A stretch of 7,478 bases of DNA from a virus (Duplodnaviria; Heunggongvirae; Uroviricota; Caudoviricetes). Each line of letters starts with the position of its first letter. Position 1 is the first letter of the stretch. The notes under the pieces are model-generated. The model did not search any database. It was not told where the DNA came from and saw only the letters and a list, made by a program, of their open reading frames with translations. The stretch is from positions 1-7,478 of IMG/VR virus record IMGVR_UViG_2548876938_000002; one strand, written 5' to 3'. The translations under genes and the position numbers were made by a program. Shown here piece after piece: positions 1 through 7,478 of this stretch.

Positions 1-720
1 ATAAACGAGCTGGTGATGTCGGTGGCGCTGACGTCATATTCCAGACAGCCACGGCGAATAACGTCTTTTGCCTTGAGCACCATTGCGGTTTTCATTTCCG
101 GCGTGTAGCGGATATCGCGCGCGGCGGGATAGAACGAGCGCACGAGCTGGAACACGCCGACACCGAGGCCGGTGGCATCAATACCGATGTATTCGACGTT
201 GTATTTTTCGGTGAGTTTGCGGATGGATTCCGCCTGGGTGGCAAAGTCCATGCCTTTCCACTGATGGCGCTCAAGTATTCTGAATTTGCCACCGGCCACC
301 ACCGGCGGTGCCAGCACCACGCATCCGGCGCTGTCGCCACGGTGTGACGGGTCGTAACCAATCCATACCGGGCGGGAGCCGAACGGATTGGTGGCAAACG
401 GCGCGTAGTCTTCCCATTCTTCCAGCGTGTCGACCATGCAGCGTTGCAGCTCCTCGAACGGGAACACTGACGCCTTGTCGTCAACAAATTCACACATGAA
501 CAGGTTTTTAAAATCGTCGGCGCTGTTTTCGCGTTTGAGCTGCTCAATGTCGAACAGCGTGCAGCCGCCTTTCAGCGCGTCCTCAATGGTGACAATCTGC
601 CGCCACTGGCCGTCCGCACAGAGAAGACCTCCGGCAAGTGCGTTATGACTGACGTCGATTTCCACGCGTTCAGCGGCGCTGGCGCGTCCCCGGTTAAACA
701 GTTCACCGGACCAGAACGGG
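1..720 (-). pseudogene. Phage terminase large subunit, C-terminal (nuclease-domain) fragment; 5'-truncated, 3' end runs off the window start
   Basis: Hand translation of the minus strand (codons aligned to plus positions 3-5, 6-8 ...) gives an open frame from 821 down to position 1 with no stop. It reads ...WIGYDPSHRGDSAGCVVLAPP...KFRILERHQWKGMDFATQAESIRKLTEKYNVEYIGIDATGLGVGVFQLVRSFYPAARDIRYTPEMKTAMVLKAKDVIRRGCLEYDVS..., which resembles terminase large-subunit nuclease-domain motifs. No ATPase (Walker) region lies upstream; the first ATG is at 779 and the residues before ~720 are antisense to the gpI fragment. The ORF track omitted it because no stop lies in the window. Confidence 0.55.
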
Positions 721-732
721 TATCTGATTGAG

Positions 733-1047
733 GTGAGGGAGTGGTGGCAACTCAATGAGGAGCCGGGGACGTTCCGCATCGTTGTTGGCGTGCTTGAGCA
801 GGGTATTACCGAGGAAATGTATCAGGAGCTGGAGCGCCTCGTTGCTGATGCAAAACCGGCGAGCCGCCATCTGACGGGACTGGCTATCAGTTTAAGTACA
901 ACCGGCAACATTTTTGCCGGTGCGGGATGCTATCACGGTGACGCCCTGACGGTTTATCCCTACACCCCGGAGGCCATTATTGTCGGAGGGGATTATTTCC
1001 CGGCCTCGGCCATTCATTTAATTGATAACCTGAGAGTAAACGCATGA
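733..1047 (+). pseudogene. I: Baseplate assembly protein gpI-like, C-terminal fragment (N-terminally truncated)
   Basis: The 104-aa ORF (VREWWQLNEEPGTFRIVVGVLEQGITEEMYQELERLVADAKPASRHLTGL...) matches my memory of the C-terminal half of P2 gpI. It starts at GTG with no ATG; its frame opens only at 649 and the in-frame residues before ~718 look unrelated. Its stop overlaps the tail-fibre start (ATGA at 1044..1047), as at the I-H junction of P2-like phages. Confidence 0.5.
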
Positions 1048-2222
1048 CAGTGAAATACTACGCCATTCTGACTAATCAGGGCGCAGCACGGCTGGCTAAC
1101 GCGACGATGCTCGGCAGTAAGCTGAATCTGACGCAAATGGCCGTTGGTGATGCGAATGGTGTCTTGCCGACACCAGACCCGGCACAGACAAAACTGATTA
1201 ACCAGAAACGCATCGCGCCGCTGAATCTTCTGAGTGTTGACCCGAACAACCAGAGCCAGATTATTGCGGAGCAAATCATCCCTGAGAACGAGGGCGGATT
1301 CTGGATCCGTGAGATTGGGCTTTATGATGATGAAGGCGTACTCATTGCGGTGGCGAACTGCCCGGAAACGTACAAACCGCAGTTGCAGGAAGGCAGTGGT
1401 CGTACCCAGACTATCCGCATGATTCTGGTTGTCACGAATACCGAAGCCATCACGCTGAAAATCGACCCGTCGGTGGTACTGGCGACCCGTAAATACGTGG
1501 ATGATGAAGTCCTGGAATTAAGGCTGTATGTGGATGACCAGATGAGAAACCACATTGTCGCACAGGATCCTCATACCCAGTATGCGCAGAAACATAATCC
1601 GACATTTACCGGAGAACCAAAAGCGCCGACGCCTGCCGCAGGAAATAACACCACGCGGATTGCGACCACTGCGTTTGTACAGGCCGCTATTACCGCTCTG
1701 ATTAACGGCGCGCCAGCCACGCTGGACACACTGAAAGAAATTGCCGCAGCCATTAACAATGACCCGAAATTCAGTACCACCATTAACAATGCGCTGTCAG
1801 GTAAGCAGCCACTGGATGAGACGCTGACTCATTTGAGTGGAAAGGATGTTGCCGGTCTTCTCGCATACCTTGGTTTGGGAGAAGCGGCTAAAAGGAATGT
1901 AGGGACAGGGGCGAATCAGATACCTGATATGGGTAGCTTCACGCTTTCTGTTTCAGGTACTGGATATCAAAAATTACCATCAGGTTTTATTCTTCAGTGG
2001 GGCTCAATCGGCGCTCCAGGCATTGCACAGGATGTAGTAACCCATTTCCCGATTGCATTTCCAAACAGATGTCTGCGTGTTTTGGTCTCACAAGACTACA
2101 CACCAGATAGCGGGGCTGTTGGTTATATTGCCTGTGCAGGTTTTAGTCCCGACCCGGTTAAATTTATATCCAGAGCCAGTACTCCTGGCCTCGGCGCTTC
2201 ATTTTTAGCGTTAGGCTGTTAA
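1044..2222 (+). CDS. H: Tail fibre protein (P2 gpH-like); constant N-terminal part 1044..~1871 fused to the currently expressed variable C-terminal tip 1884..2222
   Basis: The N-terminus ([20 protein letters not shown]...[18 protein letters not shown]...[23 protein letters not shown]...[23 protein letters not shown]) resembles the conserved N-terminal domain of P2 H. The conserved ...[24 protein letters not shown]...YLGLGE motif sits just before the crossover site, and an unrelated tip follows. Confidence 0.85.
1858..1883. other. Left crossover site of the invertible segment (gix/cix/pix/hix-like 26-bp site): TTCTCGCATACC-TT-GGTTTGGGAGAA
   Basis: Read directly from the sequence. It is a 26-bp imperfect dyad with a central TT at 1870..1871, and its right half-site GGTTTGGGAGAA is identical to the inverted half-site at 3693..3704. 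It lies inside the fibre gene at the YLGLGE codons and resembles the hix/gix pattern TTCT..AAACC..GGTTT..A.AA as I recall it. Confidence 0.8.
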
Positions 2223-2243
2223 TTTAGCTATATGGAGTGAAAA

Positions 2244-2684
2244 ATGAATTACATATATTCCGCGACTACAAACTCTTTCTATCCGCTGGAGATGAAAGAG
2301 GATTACACTCAAGCTGACTCATGGCCAGATGATGCTGTTGAAGTTGATGAGCAAGTGTATATTGAGTTTTCCGGATTACCGCCGAAAGGAAAAATCCGTA
2401 TCGCTGGAGAAAATGGTTTTCCTGCATGGTCTGAAATTCCACCACCAACACATGAGGAACAGATTGCTGCAGCCGAACTGGAAAAGCAGCAACTGATTAA
2501 TCAGGCCAACGATTATATGAACAGTAAACAATGGGCTGGTAAAGCGGCTATTGGTCGTCTGAAAGGTGAGGAACTGGCGCAATATAATTTGTGGCTGGAT
2601 TATCTGGACGCACTGGAGCTGGTCGATACTTCCGGTGCGCCAGATATTGAATGGCCTACGCCTCCGGCAGTTCAGGCCAGATGA
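2244..2684 (+). CDS. Tail fibre assembly protein (Tfa, gpG/U-like) paired with the plus-strand tip
   Basis: 146 aa, with GGAG at 2234..2237 ten nt upstream of the ATG. The C-terminus ...QYNLWLDYLDALELVDTSGAPDIEWPTPP is the typical conserved Tfa C-terminal motif. It lies directly downstream of the fibre gene. Confidence 0.85.
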   Translation: MNYIYSATTNSFYPLEMKEDYTQADSWPDDAVEVDEQVYIEFSGLPPKGKIRIAGENGFPAWSEIPPPTHEEQIAAAELEKQQLINQANDYMNSKQWAGKAAIGRLKGEELAQYNLWLDYLDALELVDTSGAPDIEWPTPPAVQAR

Positions 2685-3249
2685 CATCCGGCGCGGTGCT
2701 GGTATCTGTTGCCGTCACCGCGTCAATGTAATCCAGCACAGCGTTAAGCCGGGTTGTTTCTGCCTGCGTCAGTTTCCGCCCGGCCTGTAATTTCAGCTGA
2801 ATCAGACTAATGGAAGCCATTGCTGCATCAATCAGTGACTGGCGCTGTGCTTCTGCCGCTTCTACTGCGGCACTGTGTTGTGCCTCAGTATCTGTCACCC
2901 ATTTCTCACCATCCCATTTATCATATGGCGTTAACGGTGAAAGCGTGACATAACCGTTTTTGATGGCACCGATATAATCCACTGTAACAGCTGCGCCATT
3001 TTCGATTGAGTAAACAGTCTCATTGCGATGGTCCTCTTCATGGCTCCATCCCTTACCTGTAAATACAGCCACTTTTCCCGGAATGTTTTCGCCAGGGTCA
3101 ATACCAGTGGAACAGGCGGGCATACTTACACCAGTATTAATATATTCATCAGACCAGCCCGTATATTCATACGTTACTGCATCATAATAAAAACAACGCA
3201 TATCACCCGGCACTGTAGCCAGTCCATTTTCATCAAAAACAGGTTTCAT
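2656..3249 (-). CDS. Alternative tail fibre assembly protein (Tfa-prime), paired with the minus-strand tip
   Basis: 197 aa ending ...LNAVLDYIDAVTATDTSTAPDVIWPELPEA (Tfa C-terminal motif), with an N-terminal part resembling E. coli prophage TfaE-type chaperones. Its ATG (3249..3247) overlaps the stop of the upstream tip ORF as TAATG, indicating translational coupling. Confidence 0.85.
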   Translation of the reverse strand: MKPVFDENGLATVPGDMRCFYYDAVTYEYTGWSDEYINTGVSMPACSTGIDPGENIPGKVAVFTGKGWSHEEDHRNETVYSIENGAAVTVDYIGAIKNGYVTLSPLTPYDKWDGEKWVTDTEAQHSAAVEAAEAQRQSLIDAAMASISLIQLKLQAGRKLTQAETTRLNAVLDYIDAVTATDTSTAPDVIWPELPEA

Positions 3250-3705
3250 TATTTAGCCCTCACCAGAAAGTTAAATGCAATGTTACGTGGTCTGACGGCA
3301 ATAAAATTAACACCATCTCCTACTGAGTTACTGGTGTACTGAAATCGAGAGAAACCTGGTTGGTGTGCTGATATTCCATCGTAATCAGCAATCGCATGGC
3401 CGGACCCTTCTGGATAATTACCGCCAAATTGCGATAAAGCTGTTGCTGCCTGCCAGCTTAATAATGCTCGCCCACTGTCCGCCCCTCGCCCATCATCCCA
3501 GATACGAATGAAATCACCGCGGGCTTCAGGTAATACCAGCGAAGGAAACACTTTTGCCAGCACAGGGTAATCAGAGGCAGAAAATTTCGCCCCGTTGAAC
3601 TTCAAAAACACCATACTGGACCAGCTATCGATTACAGTATTTGGCATTGCAGCGGACGGCCAGAAGAACGGAACGCCAATAGCTGGAGCACCTTCTCCCA
3701 AACCA
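3249..3705 (-). CDS. Alternative (currently silent) tail fibre C-terminal tip, promoterless and startless, expressed only after inversion as a fusion to the constant part of the fibre gene
   Basis: The minus-strand frame reads ...IFINVGLGEGAPAIGVPFFWPS...FNGAKFSASDYPVLAKVFPSLVLPEARGDFIRIWDDGRGADSGRALLSWQAATALSQFGG...GSGHA...FNFLVRAK. The GLGE codons lie in the crossover site in the same phase as in the plus-strand fibre gene. The C-terminal part resembles the phage tail-collar fibre domain. The ORF-track Met at 3746 lies outside the invertible segment and is probably artefactual. Confidence 0.75.
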
Positions 3706-3718
3706 ACGTTTATGAAAA
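3693..3718. other. Right crossover site of the invertible segment: TTCTCCCAAACC-AA-CGTTTATGAAAA (inverted relative to the left site)
   Basis: Read directly. It is 26 bp with a central AA at 3705..3706 (TT on the other strand), and its half-site TTCTCCCAAACC is the exact reverse complement of GGTTTGGGAGAA in the left site. It lies ~55 bp upstream of the invertase start. Confidence 0.8.
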
Positions 3719-3773
3719 TGCAGAGATAACGGGCAACTGGCATCATCTCCGGTTTTTATTCAGGGGGATGCTC

Positions 3774-4367
3774 ATGCTTATTGGCTATGTACGCGTGTCA
3801 ACAAATGACCAGAACACGGAATTGCAGCGTAACGCGCTGGAGTGCGCAGGATGCGAGCGGATTTTTGAGGATAAAATCAGCGGCACGAAGTCCGACCGAC
3901 CGGGACTGAAAAAACTGCTCAGAACATTATCAGCATGTGACACTCTGGTAGTCTGGAAGCTGGACAGGCTGGGGCGTAGTATGCGGCATCTGGTCATTCT
4001 GGTTGAGGAACTGCGCGAACGCGGCGTTAATTTTCGCAGTCTGACGGATGCTATTGATACCAGCACGCCGATGGGGCGTTTTTTCTTTCATGTGATGGGG
4101 GCCCTGGCTGAAATGGAGCGAGAACTCATTGTCGAGCGGACTCGGGCCGGGCTGGAAGCGGCCAGAGCCAAAGGTCGTATTGGTGGCAGACGTCCTAAAC
4201 TCTCCACGAGTGAGTGGGAGCAGGCCGGGCGTTTGCTGGCTGCAGGGGAGTCACGTCAACGCGTGGCACTGATTTTTGATATTGGTCTGTCCACGCTCTA
4301 TAAAAAATTTCCCTCATCAGCGACAAAGAATAAATTGTGTCATCCCTTAGCCAACCGGGACAAATAG
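3774..4367 (+). CDS. Site-specific DNA invertase, serine recombinase of the Gin/Cin/Pin/Hin family
   Basis: The product MLIGYVRVSTNDQNTELQRNAL...DTLVVWKLDRLGRSMRHLV...RSLTDAIDTSTPMGRFFFHVMGALAEMERELIVERTRAGLEAARAKGRIGGRRPKL...GLSTLYKKF has the catalytic-serine motif (YVRVS), the resolvase/invertase catalytic domain and a C-terminal helix-turn-helix. It is close to the Pin/Gin sequences as I recall them. I prefer the ATG at 3774 (AGGGGGA at 3762..3768, 5-nt spacer) to the ORF-track start at 3768. Confidence 0.9.
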   Translation: MLIGYVRVSTNDQNTELQRNALECAGCERIFEDKISGTKSDRPGLKKLLRTLSACDTLVVWKLDRLGRSMRHLVILVEELRERGVNFRSLTDAIDTSTPMGRFFFHVMGALAEMERELIVERTRAGLEAARAKGRIGGRRPKLSTSEWEQAGRLLAAGESRQRVALIFDIGLSTLYKKFPSSATKNKLCHPLANRDK

Positions 4368-4426
4368 CCTGACATCTCCGGCACAACTGAAAATATCACT
4401 CACCCATTAACCACGGAGTTAAACGG

Positions 4427-5298
4427 ATGAGTGACTATCATCACGGCGTGCAGGTGCTGGAGATTAACGACGGCACCCGCGTCATTTCCACCGTATCCAC
4501 TGCCATTGTCGGCATGGTCTGCACGGCCAGCGATGCGGATGCGGAAACCTTCCCCCTCAATAAACCGGTGCTGATTACCAATGTGCAGAGCGCAATTGCA
4601 AAGGCCGGTAAAAAAGGCACGCTGGCGGCATCGTTGCAGGCCATCGCCGACCAGTCAAAACCGGTCACCGTTGTTGTGCGTGTGGAAGACGGCACCGGCG
4701 ACGACGAGGAAACGAAACTTGCGCAGACCGTTTCCAATATCATCGGCACCACCGACGAAAACGGTCAGTACACCGGACTGAAAGCCCTGCTGGCGGCAGA
4801 GTCGGTACCGGCATCAGCGCCTCTGTATTCTGGGATTTGCAGGAGTCCGGCACCGATGCTGACCTGCTTAACGAGTCAGGCGTCACTACGCTGATTCGCC
4901 GCGACGGTTTCCGCTTCTGGGGTAACCGTACCTGCTCCGATGACCCGCTGTTCCTCTTTGAAAACTACACCCGCACCGCGCAGGTGCTGGCCGACACGAT
5001 GGCTGAGGCGCACATGTGGGCAGTGGACAAGCCCATCACCGCAACGCTGATTCGCGACATCGTTGACGGCATTAATGCCAAATTCCGTGAGCTGAAAACA
5101 AACGGCTATATCGTGGATGCGACCTGCTGGTTCAGCGAAGAATCCAACGATGCGGAAACCCTCAAGGCCGGAAAACTGTATATCGACTACGACTATACAC
5201 CGGTGACCGAGCAGGAAGTCGCCGCGCTGGAACTGCCTGACCTTGTGGCGCTGGCCGGTAAGGTGGTCGGTTTTTTGTCGCCGAACTCGGTGCAGTGA
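4427..5298 (+). pseudogene. FI: Tail sheath gene (P2 FI-like) remnant: frame change near 4808 and 3' end fused near 5206 to the C-terminal codons of a tail-chaperone (gpE-like) frame
   Basis: Two overlapping ORFs in different frames (4427..4894 frame 2; 4837..5298 frame 1) both read as sheath protein ([54 protein letters not shown]... and ...[40 protein letters not shown]...[11 protein letters not shown]). Together they span ~290 codons, whereas P2-type sheaths are ~390 aa. GGAG at 4415..4418 precedes the ATG. The last ~30 codons ([30 protein letters not shown]) match my memory of the gpE C-terminus and contain the slippery heptamer. Confidence 0.65.
5271..5277 (+). promoter_or_regulatory. 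Programmed -1 frameshift slippery heptamer T_TTT_TTG of the tail-chaperone E/E' module (relic)
   Basis: TTTTTTG sits in X_XXY_YYZ phase relative to the frame ending at 5298 (codons ttt ttg = F L), about 7 codons before that stop. The -1 frame is open from 5241 to 5573 and reads [29 protein letters not shown]... This is the classic position for the tail assembly chaperone frameshift (lambda G/GT, P2 E/E+E'). Confidence 0.5.
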
Positions 5299-5326
5299 CG
5301 TTTCCGAAAAATCTCTCGGTCGATGA

Positions 5327-7177
5327 CCTGATGGCGGATGTGGCAGTGATATTTCACTGCCCGGTTATGAGTTTGCGCAGAAAAACTCAGAATTGCAGGC
5401 TGTGCTCGGTGTGGCAAAAGACTCCGCCGAAATGGCTGCACTACGCAAGCAGGCGCGCCAGCTCGGCGACAATACCGCCGCCTCGGCAGATGATGCAGCC
5501 GGTGCGCAGATTATTATTGCGAAAGCCGGTGGGGATGTTGATGCCATTCAGGCGGCAACGCCGGTCACGCTGAATATGGCGCTGGCGAACCGCCGCACGA
5601 TGGAAGAAAACGCCGCCCTGCTGATGGGGATGAAATCCGCCTTTCAGCTTTCAAACGATAAGGTCGCTCATATCGGGGATGTTCTCTCCATGACGATGAA
5701 CAAAACCGCCGCCGATTTTGACGGCATGAGCGATGCGCTGACCTATGCCGCACCTGTGGCAAAAAATGCCGGTGTCAGCATTGAAGAAACTGCCGCAATG
5801 GTCGGGGTACTGCATGATGCAAAAATTACCGGTTCAATGGCGGGGACGGGAAGCCGTGCCGTGTTAAGCCGCCTGCAGGCACCGACGGGAAAAGCATGGG
5901 ATGCACTCAAAGAGCTTGGTGTGAAAACCTCAGACAGTAAGGGAAACACCCGACCAGTATTTACCATTCTGAAAGAAATGCAGGCCAGTTTTGAGAAAAA
6001 CCGGCTCGGTACTGCCCAGCAGGCTGAATACATGAAAACCATTTTCGGGGAGGAGGCCAGTTCAGCCGCCGCCGTGCTGATGACTGCCGCCTCAACCGGA
6101 AAGCTGGACAAACTGACCGCTGCGTTTAAAGCCTCAGACGGAAAGACCGCAGAGCTGGTAAATATCATGCAGGACAACCTCGGCGGTGACTTTAAGGAGT
6201 TTCAGTCCGCTTATGAGGCGGTGGGGACTGACCTGTTTGACCAGCAGGAAGGCGCACTGCGTAAGCTCACGCAGACGGCCACAAAGTATGTGTTAAAACT
6301 CGACGGCTGGATCCAGAAAAACAAATCACTGGCGTCAACCATCGGCATCATTGCCGGTGGCGCACTGGCGCTTACTGGCATCATCGGTGCCATTGGTCTT
6401 GTAGCCTGGCCGGTTATCACCGGCATCAATGCCATCATCGCGGCAGCAGGCGCAATGGGGGCAATCTTCACGACGGTTGGCAGTGCTGTTATGACCGCCA
6501 TCGGGGCGATTAGCTGGCCGGTTGTGGCTGTGGTGGCCGCCATTGTCGCCGGGGTGTTGCTTATCCGTAAATACTGGGAGCCTGTCAGCGCATTCTTTAG
6601 CGGTGTGGTTGAAGGGCTGAAAACGGCATTTGCGCCGGTGGGAGAACTGTTCACGCCACTGAAACCGGTGTTCGACTGGCTGGGTGAAAAGTTACAGGCC
6701 GCGTGGCAGTGGTTTAAAAACCTGATTGCCCCGGTCAAAGCCACCCAGGACACCCTGAACCGTTGCCGTGACACGGGCGTCATTTTCGGGCAGGCACTGG
6801 CTGACGCGCTGATGTTGCCGCTTAATGCGTTCAACAAACTGCGCAGCGGCATTGACTGGGTACTGGAAAAGCTCGGGGTCATCAACAAAGAGTCAGACAC
6901 ACTTGACCAGACCGCCGCCAGAACTCATGCCGCCACGTATGGCACCGGTGGTTATATTCCGGCGACCAGCTCTTATGCAGGCTATCAGGCTTATCAGCCG
7001 GTCACGGCACCGGCTGGCCGCTCTTATGTGGACCAGAGTAAAAACGAATATCACATCAGTCTGACGGGCGGTACTGCACCGGGGACTCAGCTCGACCGCC
7101 AGTTACAGGATGCGCTCGAAAAATACGAGCGGGATAAACGTGCGCGCGCCCGTGCCAGCATGATGCATGACGGTTAA
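5327..7177 (+). pseudogene. T: Tail tape-measure protein (gpT-like), missing its start and N-terminal region
   Basis: The frame is open from 5327 to the TAA at 7175..7177. The product has tape-measure features: the core motif region ...DALTYAAPVAKNAGVSIEETAAMVGVLHDAKITGSMAGTGSRAVLSRL..., a long Gly/Ala/Ile-rich hydrophobic segment (IGIIAGGALALTGIIGAIGLVAWPVITG...) and a C-terminal domain. No ATG with a ribosome-binding site exists: the ORF track started at TTG 5393 and the first in-frame ATG at 5432 has no Shine-Dalgarno. The upstream E-prime frame is a different frame. Confidence 0.65.
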
Positions 7178-7191
7178 GGAGGTGACTAAAA

Positions 7192-7478
7192 ATGATGCTC
7201 GCGTTAGGTATGTTTGTTTTTATGCGCCAGACGCTGCCACACCAGACCATGCAGCGTGAATCAGATTATCGCTGGCCGTCAAATTCCCGTATCGGTAAAC
7301 GGGATGCCTTTCAGTTTCTCGGTGTGGGTGAGGAAAACATTACGCTTGCCGGTGTGCTTTATCCCGAACTGACCGGCGGCAAGCTGACGATGACCACGCT
7401 CAGGCTGATGGCAGAGGAAGGTCGGGCGTGGCCGTTGCTGGATGGCACCGGCATGATTTACGGCATGTATGTCATCAG
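7192..7478 (+). CDS. U: Tail protein gpU-like (5' part; continues beyond the window end)
   Basis: AAGGAGGTGA at 7176..7185 precedes ATGATG at 7192. Hand translation gives MMLALGMFVFMRQTLPHQTMQRESDYRWPSNSRIGKRDAFQFLGVGEENITLAGVLYPELTGGKLTMTTLRLMAEEGRAWPLLDGTGMIYGMYVI..., open to the window edge, which resembles P2 gpU. It follows T as in the P2 F-E-T-U-D operon. It is not in the ORF track because no stop lies in the window. Confidence 0.8.
   Translation, partial: MMLALGMFVFMRQTLPHQTMQRESDYRWPSNSRIGKRDAFQFLGVGEENITLAGVLYPELTGGKLTMTTLRLMAEEGRAWPLLDGTGMIYGMYVI

Follow-up and report, generated by a model that had tools for sequence, protein, structure and literature searches.

A probable deletion scar joining terminase gene P to baseplate gene I in a P2-type E. 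coli prophage undergoing decay

How did a fragment of the terminase gene of a P2-like phage come to lie directly against a fragment of the baseplate gene I, and what kind of element carries this joint? Both fragments are found at the left end of the window, that is, the whole 7,478-bp stretch of DNA analysed here, which is the entire contig AIAO01000156.1 of the draft assembly GCA_000446325.2. An initial annotation of this sequence had proposed that a single deletion, running from inside P to inside I, brought the minus-strand terminase fragment and the plus-strand gpI fragment together with no intergenic DNA between them. At either end the contig stops within a phage gene, in P at P2 position 1396 and in U at P2 position 22598, suggesting that a second P2-like element or another repeat is present in the same genome.

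The P/I joint and its parental sequences

Comparison by BLAST with phage P2 (AF063097) places window positions 1-722 at P2 1396-2117 with 97.6% identity, inside gene P for the terminase large subunit (1221-2993, minus strand), and window positions 717-872 at P2 12474-12629, inside baseplate gene I (12193-12723, plus strand). The two blocks lie on one strand of P2 and in increasing map order, which indicates a plain deletion and neither an inversion nor a transposition. The terminase gene of E. coli DCE7 (L003) shows 100% identity to positions 1-722, and an intact P2-like (Peduovirus) prophage, L011, located on contig JAVGNM010000008.1 of GCA_036294505.1 beside a U32 peptidase gene, shows 100% identity to positions 723-4807. 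This prophage was chosen via its shared H protein and is, among the prophages compared, the closest one in every block of the window, P included.

A six-frame reading reveals a long minus-strand frame that is still open at the left edge of the window, and a plus-strand frame that ends at 1047. The former holds a 3' fragment of gene P (1-720, minus strand) that is identical or near-identical in protein alignment to residues 293-532 of the 590 residues of gpP, after which the contig ends. Residues 1-292 are missing, and the fragment is without the HTH, the Walker part and most of the ATPase domain of gpP; in a Pfam search only profile positions 143-215 of Terminase_6N are matched, corresponding to the last third of the ATPase domain, while the RNaseH-like nuclease domain is kept (Terminase_6C, E=6e-33) and is cut by the contig end only. 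This agrees with the earlier description of a terminase lacking its ATPase-bearing N-terminal half, and leaves no room for a complete protein with its own start.

The plus-strand frame holds a 3' fragment of gene I (723-1047, plus strand) that matches the I protein of a close relative from residue 95 to its last residue, 203, with 109/109 residues identical, and that also aligns with residues 95-175 of P2 gpI. Pfam matches it to positions 94-139 of the 139 positions of Tail_P2_I only, and residues 1-94 of 203 are missing. The N-terminal truncation of gpI had thus been recognized correctly, with its extent put too low (about 70 residues instead of 94). The longest ORF with a start codon in this fragment spans 733-1047 (GTG, 104 aa), the version reported by gene callers spans 817-1047 (76 aa), and the former is likewise part of a truncated I protein and not a short intact baseplate protein.

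Across the joint a chimeric ORF can be read on the minus strand (3-779), consisting of 19 residues antisense to I followed by gpP from residue 293 onward. In protein alignment the 33 residues that precede gpP residue 293 in the minus-strand frame are unrelated to gpP, since they are read from the antisense strand of I. A consensus scan of window positions 400-1200 did not find a sigma-70-like promoter, so the P and I pieces are promoterless on present evidence, and the chimeric ORF is, lacking a promoter-like site nearby, most likely a pseudogene. For annotation, this means that the minus-strand ORF at 3-779 and the plus-strand ORF called as either 817-1047 or 733-1047 are gene fragments to be marked as pseudogenes.

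The joint itself, termed J1, can be placed on the dinucleotide TA at 721-722, which is present in both parental sequences and is flanked by a P-type G at 720 and an I-type T at 723. The sequence confirms it as first described, with its position corrected from about 700-720 to 721-722. The P parent reads ...CCAGAACGGGTA up to the joint and ggcgtc beyond it, the I parent reads ...gctCGGcTA up to the joint and TCTGATTGAGG beyond it, and the window reads ...CCAGAACGGGTATCTGATTGAGG; in a side-by-side alignment the parents agree at 5 of the 6 bases in CGGnTA and filler DNA is absent, so that the two fragments do meet without intergenic DNA. In terms of L011, positions 185 and 9678 are joined at the TA. 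L011 carries both parental sites together with the intervening 9,494 bp and differs at the joint only by these extra bases, in line with the proposed single deletion from P to I.

According to the gene table of L011, the missing 9,494 bp comprise P codons 1-292, the genes O, N, M, L, X, holin, endolysin, LysA/B/C, R, S, V, W and J, and I codons 1-94. The divergent late promoters pP/pO as well as pV, placed from the annotated P2 map, are lost with them. The capsid, lysis, tail-completion and most baseplate genes and the late promoter that had been listed as removed are accordingly all contained in the lost interval. Collinear flanks in an intact relative, the absence of filler and a short overlap are what a simple illegitimate deletion would leave, and the sequence comparison, which directly shows where each flank came from, at which base the breaks lie, how long the overlaps are and which genes were lost, supports one collinear deletion from inside P to inside I. 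J1 has the look of a true deletion scar in an E. coli prophage of the P2 type that is falling apart, and thus of ordinary prophage decay.

Three further deletions and the state of the element

Downstream of J1 there are three deletions of the same style, missed in the initial annotation, that affect FI, FI-FII-E and E'-T and remove 328, 854 and 713 bp, respectively. J2 (4806-4807) lies in the interior of the tail sheath gene FI and has a TA overlap; its length of 328 bp causes a frameshift, and the 5' fragment of FI (4427-4894, plus strand) is out of frame past this point. J3 (5204) removes the 3' end of FI, all of the tube gene FII and E codons 1-60, with an overlap of 1 bp relative to L011 and of 2 bp (TG) relative to P2, and creates a fusion ORF (4837-5298, plus strand) of the C-terminal part of FI and the last 31 codons of E, with which the Pfam matches are consistent. 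J4 (5358-5359) runs from E' into the tape-measure gene T with a TG overlap and takes away about 209 codons of T, of which a truncated version remains (5411-7177, plus strand; 588 of 815 codons). It is followed by tail gene U (7192-7478, plus strand), which is cut by the contig end. A separate 1-bp indel near 4807 was dismissed as mere stretching of the BLAST alignment, and a circular contig with its ends joined by a fifth deletion was rejected since a terminal overlap was not found.

Relative to L011, the window shows no differences in 538-720 and 723-4807, three in 4810-5203, none in 5206-5359 and one in 5362-7478. Outside the four junctions this amounts to 4 substitutions over about 7.3 kb, with indels entirely absent (99.95% identity). 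Together with L011 being the best match for every block, this indicates a single prophage lineage for the whole contig as well as a clean consensus. Three of the four substitutions (4914, 4938 and 5022) lie close together in the stretch of FI, 400 bp long, that separates J2 from J3, with none in the 4.1 kb upstream, which may reflect relaxed constraint, a small recombination patch or chance.

The retained DNA has the genes, order and orientation of the P2 family (Peduovirus), with five collinear blocks at 96-100% identity to AF063097, a range that holds for P, FI, E and T-U. L011 has the same orientation of the invertible segment and differs by the 9,494 + 328 + 854 + 713 bp that the window lacks. 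A complete head, lysis, baseplate and tail gene set is not found in the window, where P, O-S, V, W, J, I, FI, FII, E/E' and T are hit; compared with P2 and L011 it is without the terminase ATPase, the capsid, lysis and tail-completion genes, V/W/J and the tube gene, and without an intact sheath gene, E/E' or T. Because of J2-J4 the tail genes are dead too. Judged by its gene content, the element is a dead P2-like remnant in which the tail-fibre/invertase module alone is intact, and it should be scored as such, as neither an inducible prophage nor a tailocin.

The module begins with the tail fibre gene H (1044-2222, plus strand), which is intact, encodes 392 aa and has an identical protein in many intact prophages, followed by a tail fibre assembly gene (2244-2684, plus strand, 146 aa). 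In silent orientation lie the alternative tail fibre assembly gene (2656-3249, minus strand, 197 aa) and the alternative C-terminal tail-fibre segment (3249-3746, minus strand), and next to them the serine DNA invertase (3774-4367, plus strand, 197 aa), which has Resolvase and HTH_7 domains. The left crossover site is located inside H (1858-1883, TTCTCGCATACC-TT-GGTTTGGGAGAA) and the right one at 3693-3718 (TTCTCCCAAACC-AA-CGTTTATGAAAA). The invertible tail-fibre segment of about 1.8 kb is thus of the Hin/Gin/Cin/Pin type and has the orientation seen in L011, and the segment, the invertase and both alternative sets of fibre-end and assembly genes are intact. An Rfam search of the window gave zero matches.

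Origin of the junctions

The overlaps at J1, J2, J3 and J4 measure 2, 2, 1 and 2 bp, and none of the joints has filler. Of breakpoint pairs drawn at random in L011, 56% show no overlap at all and 16% overlap by at least 2 bp. A single 2-bp overlap is consequently weak evidence, as 16% of random joints reach that, while the pattern of all four overlaps has a P of about 0.002 against random pairs and speaks for ends being joined with the help of very short homology. Replication slippage usually requires longer direct repeats, and end-joining fits the four overlaps better. In E. coli, RecA-independent and RecBCD-dependent end-joining reportedly involves 1-9 nt of microhomology (Chayot et al., 2010, as cited), and for native end-joining after Cas9 cuts 1-3 nt of microhomology are reported (bioRxiv 10.1101/605246).

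J1 is probably the scar of one illegitimate (homology-independent) deletion that struck a P2-family prophage residing in E. coli, and the best mechanism to propose is a RecA-independent, microhomology-associated illegitimate joining. A break or a replication accident inside the resident prophage would have led to a point in P (about codon 293, in minus-strand reading) being joined to codon 95 of I at the common TA, either by RecBCD/LigA-type RecA-independent end-joining or by replication slippage. About 9.5 kb would have been lost in this way, with the terminase ATPase half, pP/pO, the capsid, lysis and tail-completion genes, pV, V, W and J, leaving the P and I pieces as promoterless pseudogenes and the junction itself functionless. 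Three small deletions of the same style disable the sheath, tube, E/E' and tape-measure genes. The event at J1 presumably took place in one step, and on the chromosome of the bacterium, not during assembly.

The distribution of the junctions bears on the last point. With a 401-bp query, J1 was absent from 5,426 complete E. coli genomes, where no place covered both of its sides, and was not found in plasmids, and no phage record spanned it. Searches with exact J1 strings gave no true match in species-representative genomes, IMG/VR or JGI metagenomes; a single 21-mer match in an Anaerolineales MAG (L004) has no other similarity and was set aside as chance. J2-J4 are absent from the complete genomes, where the best matches all have an intact 2.8-kb interval, and among about 15 billion proteins the three proteins spanning these junctions occur in this contig alone. 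Knowledge of all four junctions from one 7,478-bp draft contig is a counterweight to a real deletion, as is the count of four deletions against only 4 substitutions relative to L011, an unusually deletion-rich history.

Both observations would be accommodated if the contig were mis-joined and the source strain truly carried an intact prophage, for which chimeric reads, an assembler error or the manual removal of spans in an assembly revision (the assembly is at version.2) could be responsible. The window is a whole short contig with both ends inside phage genes, its four junctions are unique to it and its remaining sequence is almost identical to that of intact L011, all of which would be expected of such an artefact. 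However, assemblers join at shared k-mers and not at 1-2 bp, and it is unlikely that four independent chimeras would all be collinear, in the same orientation and winners of the consensus. Moreover, the zero indels in about 7.3 kb against L011 point to a well-covered consensus, and arbitrary excision would leave 56% of the joints without overlap, yet four of four have some, so that an artefact has to be regarded as unlikely, though it deserves to be kept in mind. Unequal exchange between two P2-like prophages in one genome, in place of an internal deletion, could draw on the frequent presence of more than one P2-like element in an E. coli genome (median of 2 places per genome) and on the breaking off of the contig within P and within U, which repeats would bring about if there were a second copy; it is very improbable, given that the P and I breakpoints have no homology beyond 2 bp (5 of 6 bases) and that L011 is the best match for every block, including P.

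Another candidate is the serine invertase of the prophage itself, acting at secondary (quasi) crossover sites. The intact Hin/Gin/Cin/Pin-type enzyme and its two crossover sites are only 1-3 kb away, and three of the four junctions have exactly the 2-bp overlap of the staggered cut made by this enzyme family. The enzymes of this family normally invert rather than delete DNA. The eight parental breakpoints match 2-6 of 20 positions of the crossover-site consensus, compared with a mean of 4.9 for the background and with 18-19 for the true sites, and none of the four junctions involves a true crossover site; deletion at quasi-sites was therefore rejected, as the breakpoints do not resemble the 26-bp crossover site, and its probability is close to negligible. 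A further, speculative and improbable possibility is that the four deletions arose together in one burst of double-strand breaks that was repaired by the RecBCD/LigA end-joining of the host, with an attack by a restriction or CRISPR-type nuclease or an abortive induction as possible causes. If true, such a burst would amount to a small-scale "shattering" in which a live prophage was killed in one step and not by slow stepwise decay.

An illegitimate deletion at J1 remains the preferred explanation. The one mildly useful aspect of the locus is that L011 allows a base-exact reconstruction of four deletions with overlaps of 1-2 bp. It thereby provides a clean data point on the speed and the joining pathway of prophage disabling in E. 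coli, and otherwise matters little beyond annotation.

Related remnants and tailocins

The degeneration of prophages by deletion is established textbook material (PMC6379469), and the P/I scar is an already known kind of feature that belongs to ordinary prophage decay and not to a new system. Among E. coli remnants of the same phage type, L018 has a deletion joining capsid gene N to I and L020 has one joining J to I, while L019 carries an integrase/I joint next to yegR. In L017 (5845-5847 and 10934-11263) an inversion that spans the tail-fibre/invertase/sheath region has one end in FII, the tube gene, and the other in I, with a 3-bp overlap at the joint examined. Given these independent rearrangements ending inside I, such scars are common. 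They share with the window, and with cryptic "grounded" prophages (PMC6379469), the loss of morphogenetic genes by internal deletion or inversion with overlaps of a few bases, but their partners are N, integrase, J and FII with other breakpoints, whereas a P/I joint is found in the window alone. In L002 coordinates their breakpoints in I lie at 11768-11975 and that of the window at 12005, and a breakpoint hot spot in gene I was dismissed as a search effect, since the remnants were found through one shared ORF of 114 aa and the cluster follows from this.

The window also resembles R-type tailocins derived from P2-like tails, such as pyocin R2 and as discussed for E. coli ST131 (PMC9205054), in having a P2-type tail cluster without capsid and packaging genes. 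An R-type tailocin, however, requires intact baseplate, sheath, tube, tape-measure and lysis genes, while the window has lost V, W, J, FII and the lysis genes and retains I, FI, E and T as truncated versions. In contrast to the P2-like tail clusters treated in PMC9205054 it is therefore not a tailocin, with damage or loss affecting sheath, tube, baseplate, tape measure and lysis alike.

Two side observations concern related prophages. The intact relatives L010 and L012 (5899-7425) carry a cargo gene of 508 aa that lies where P2 has orf30, with S on one side and V on the other; it has a weak AAA and a faint TIR match and probably serves in anti-phage defence, while in L011 this place is without any gene. 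In L016 (11360-13625) an IS66-family element is inserted just upstream of the invertase gene, of which a 75-aa fragment is left, and several late genes have frameshifts, so that a similar state of decay has been reached in another way.
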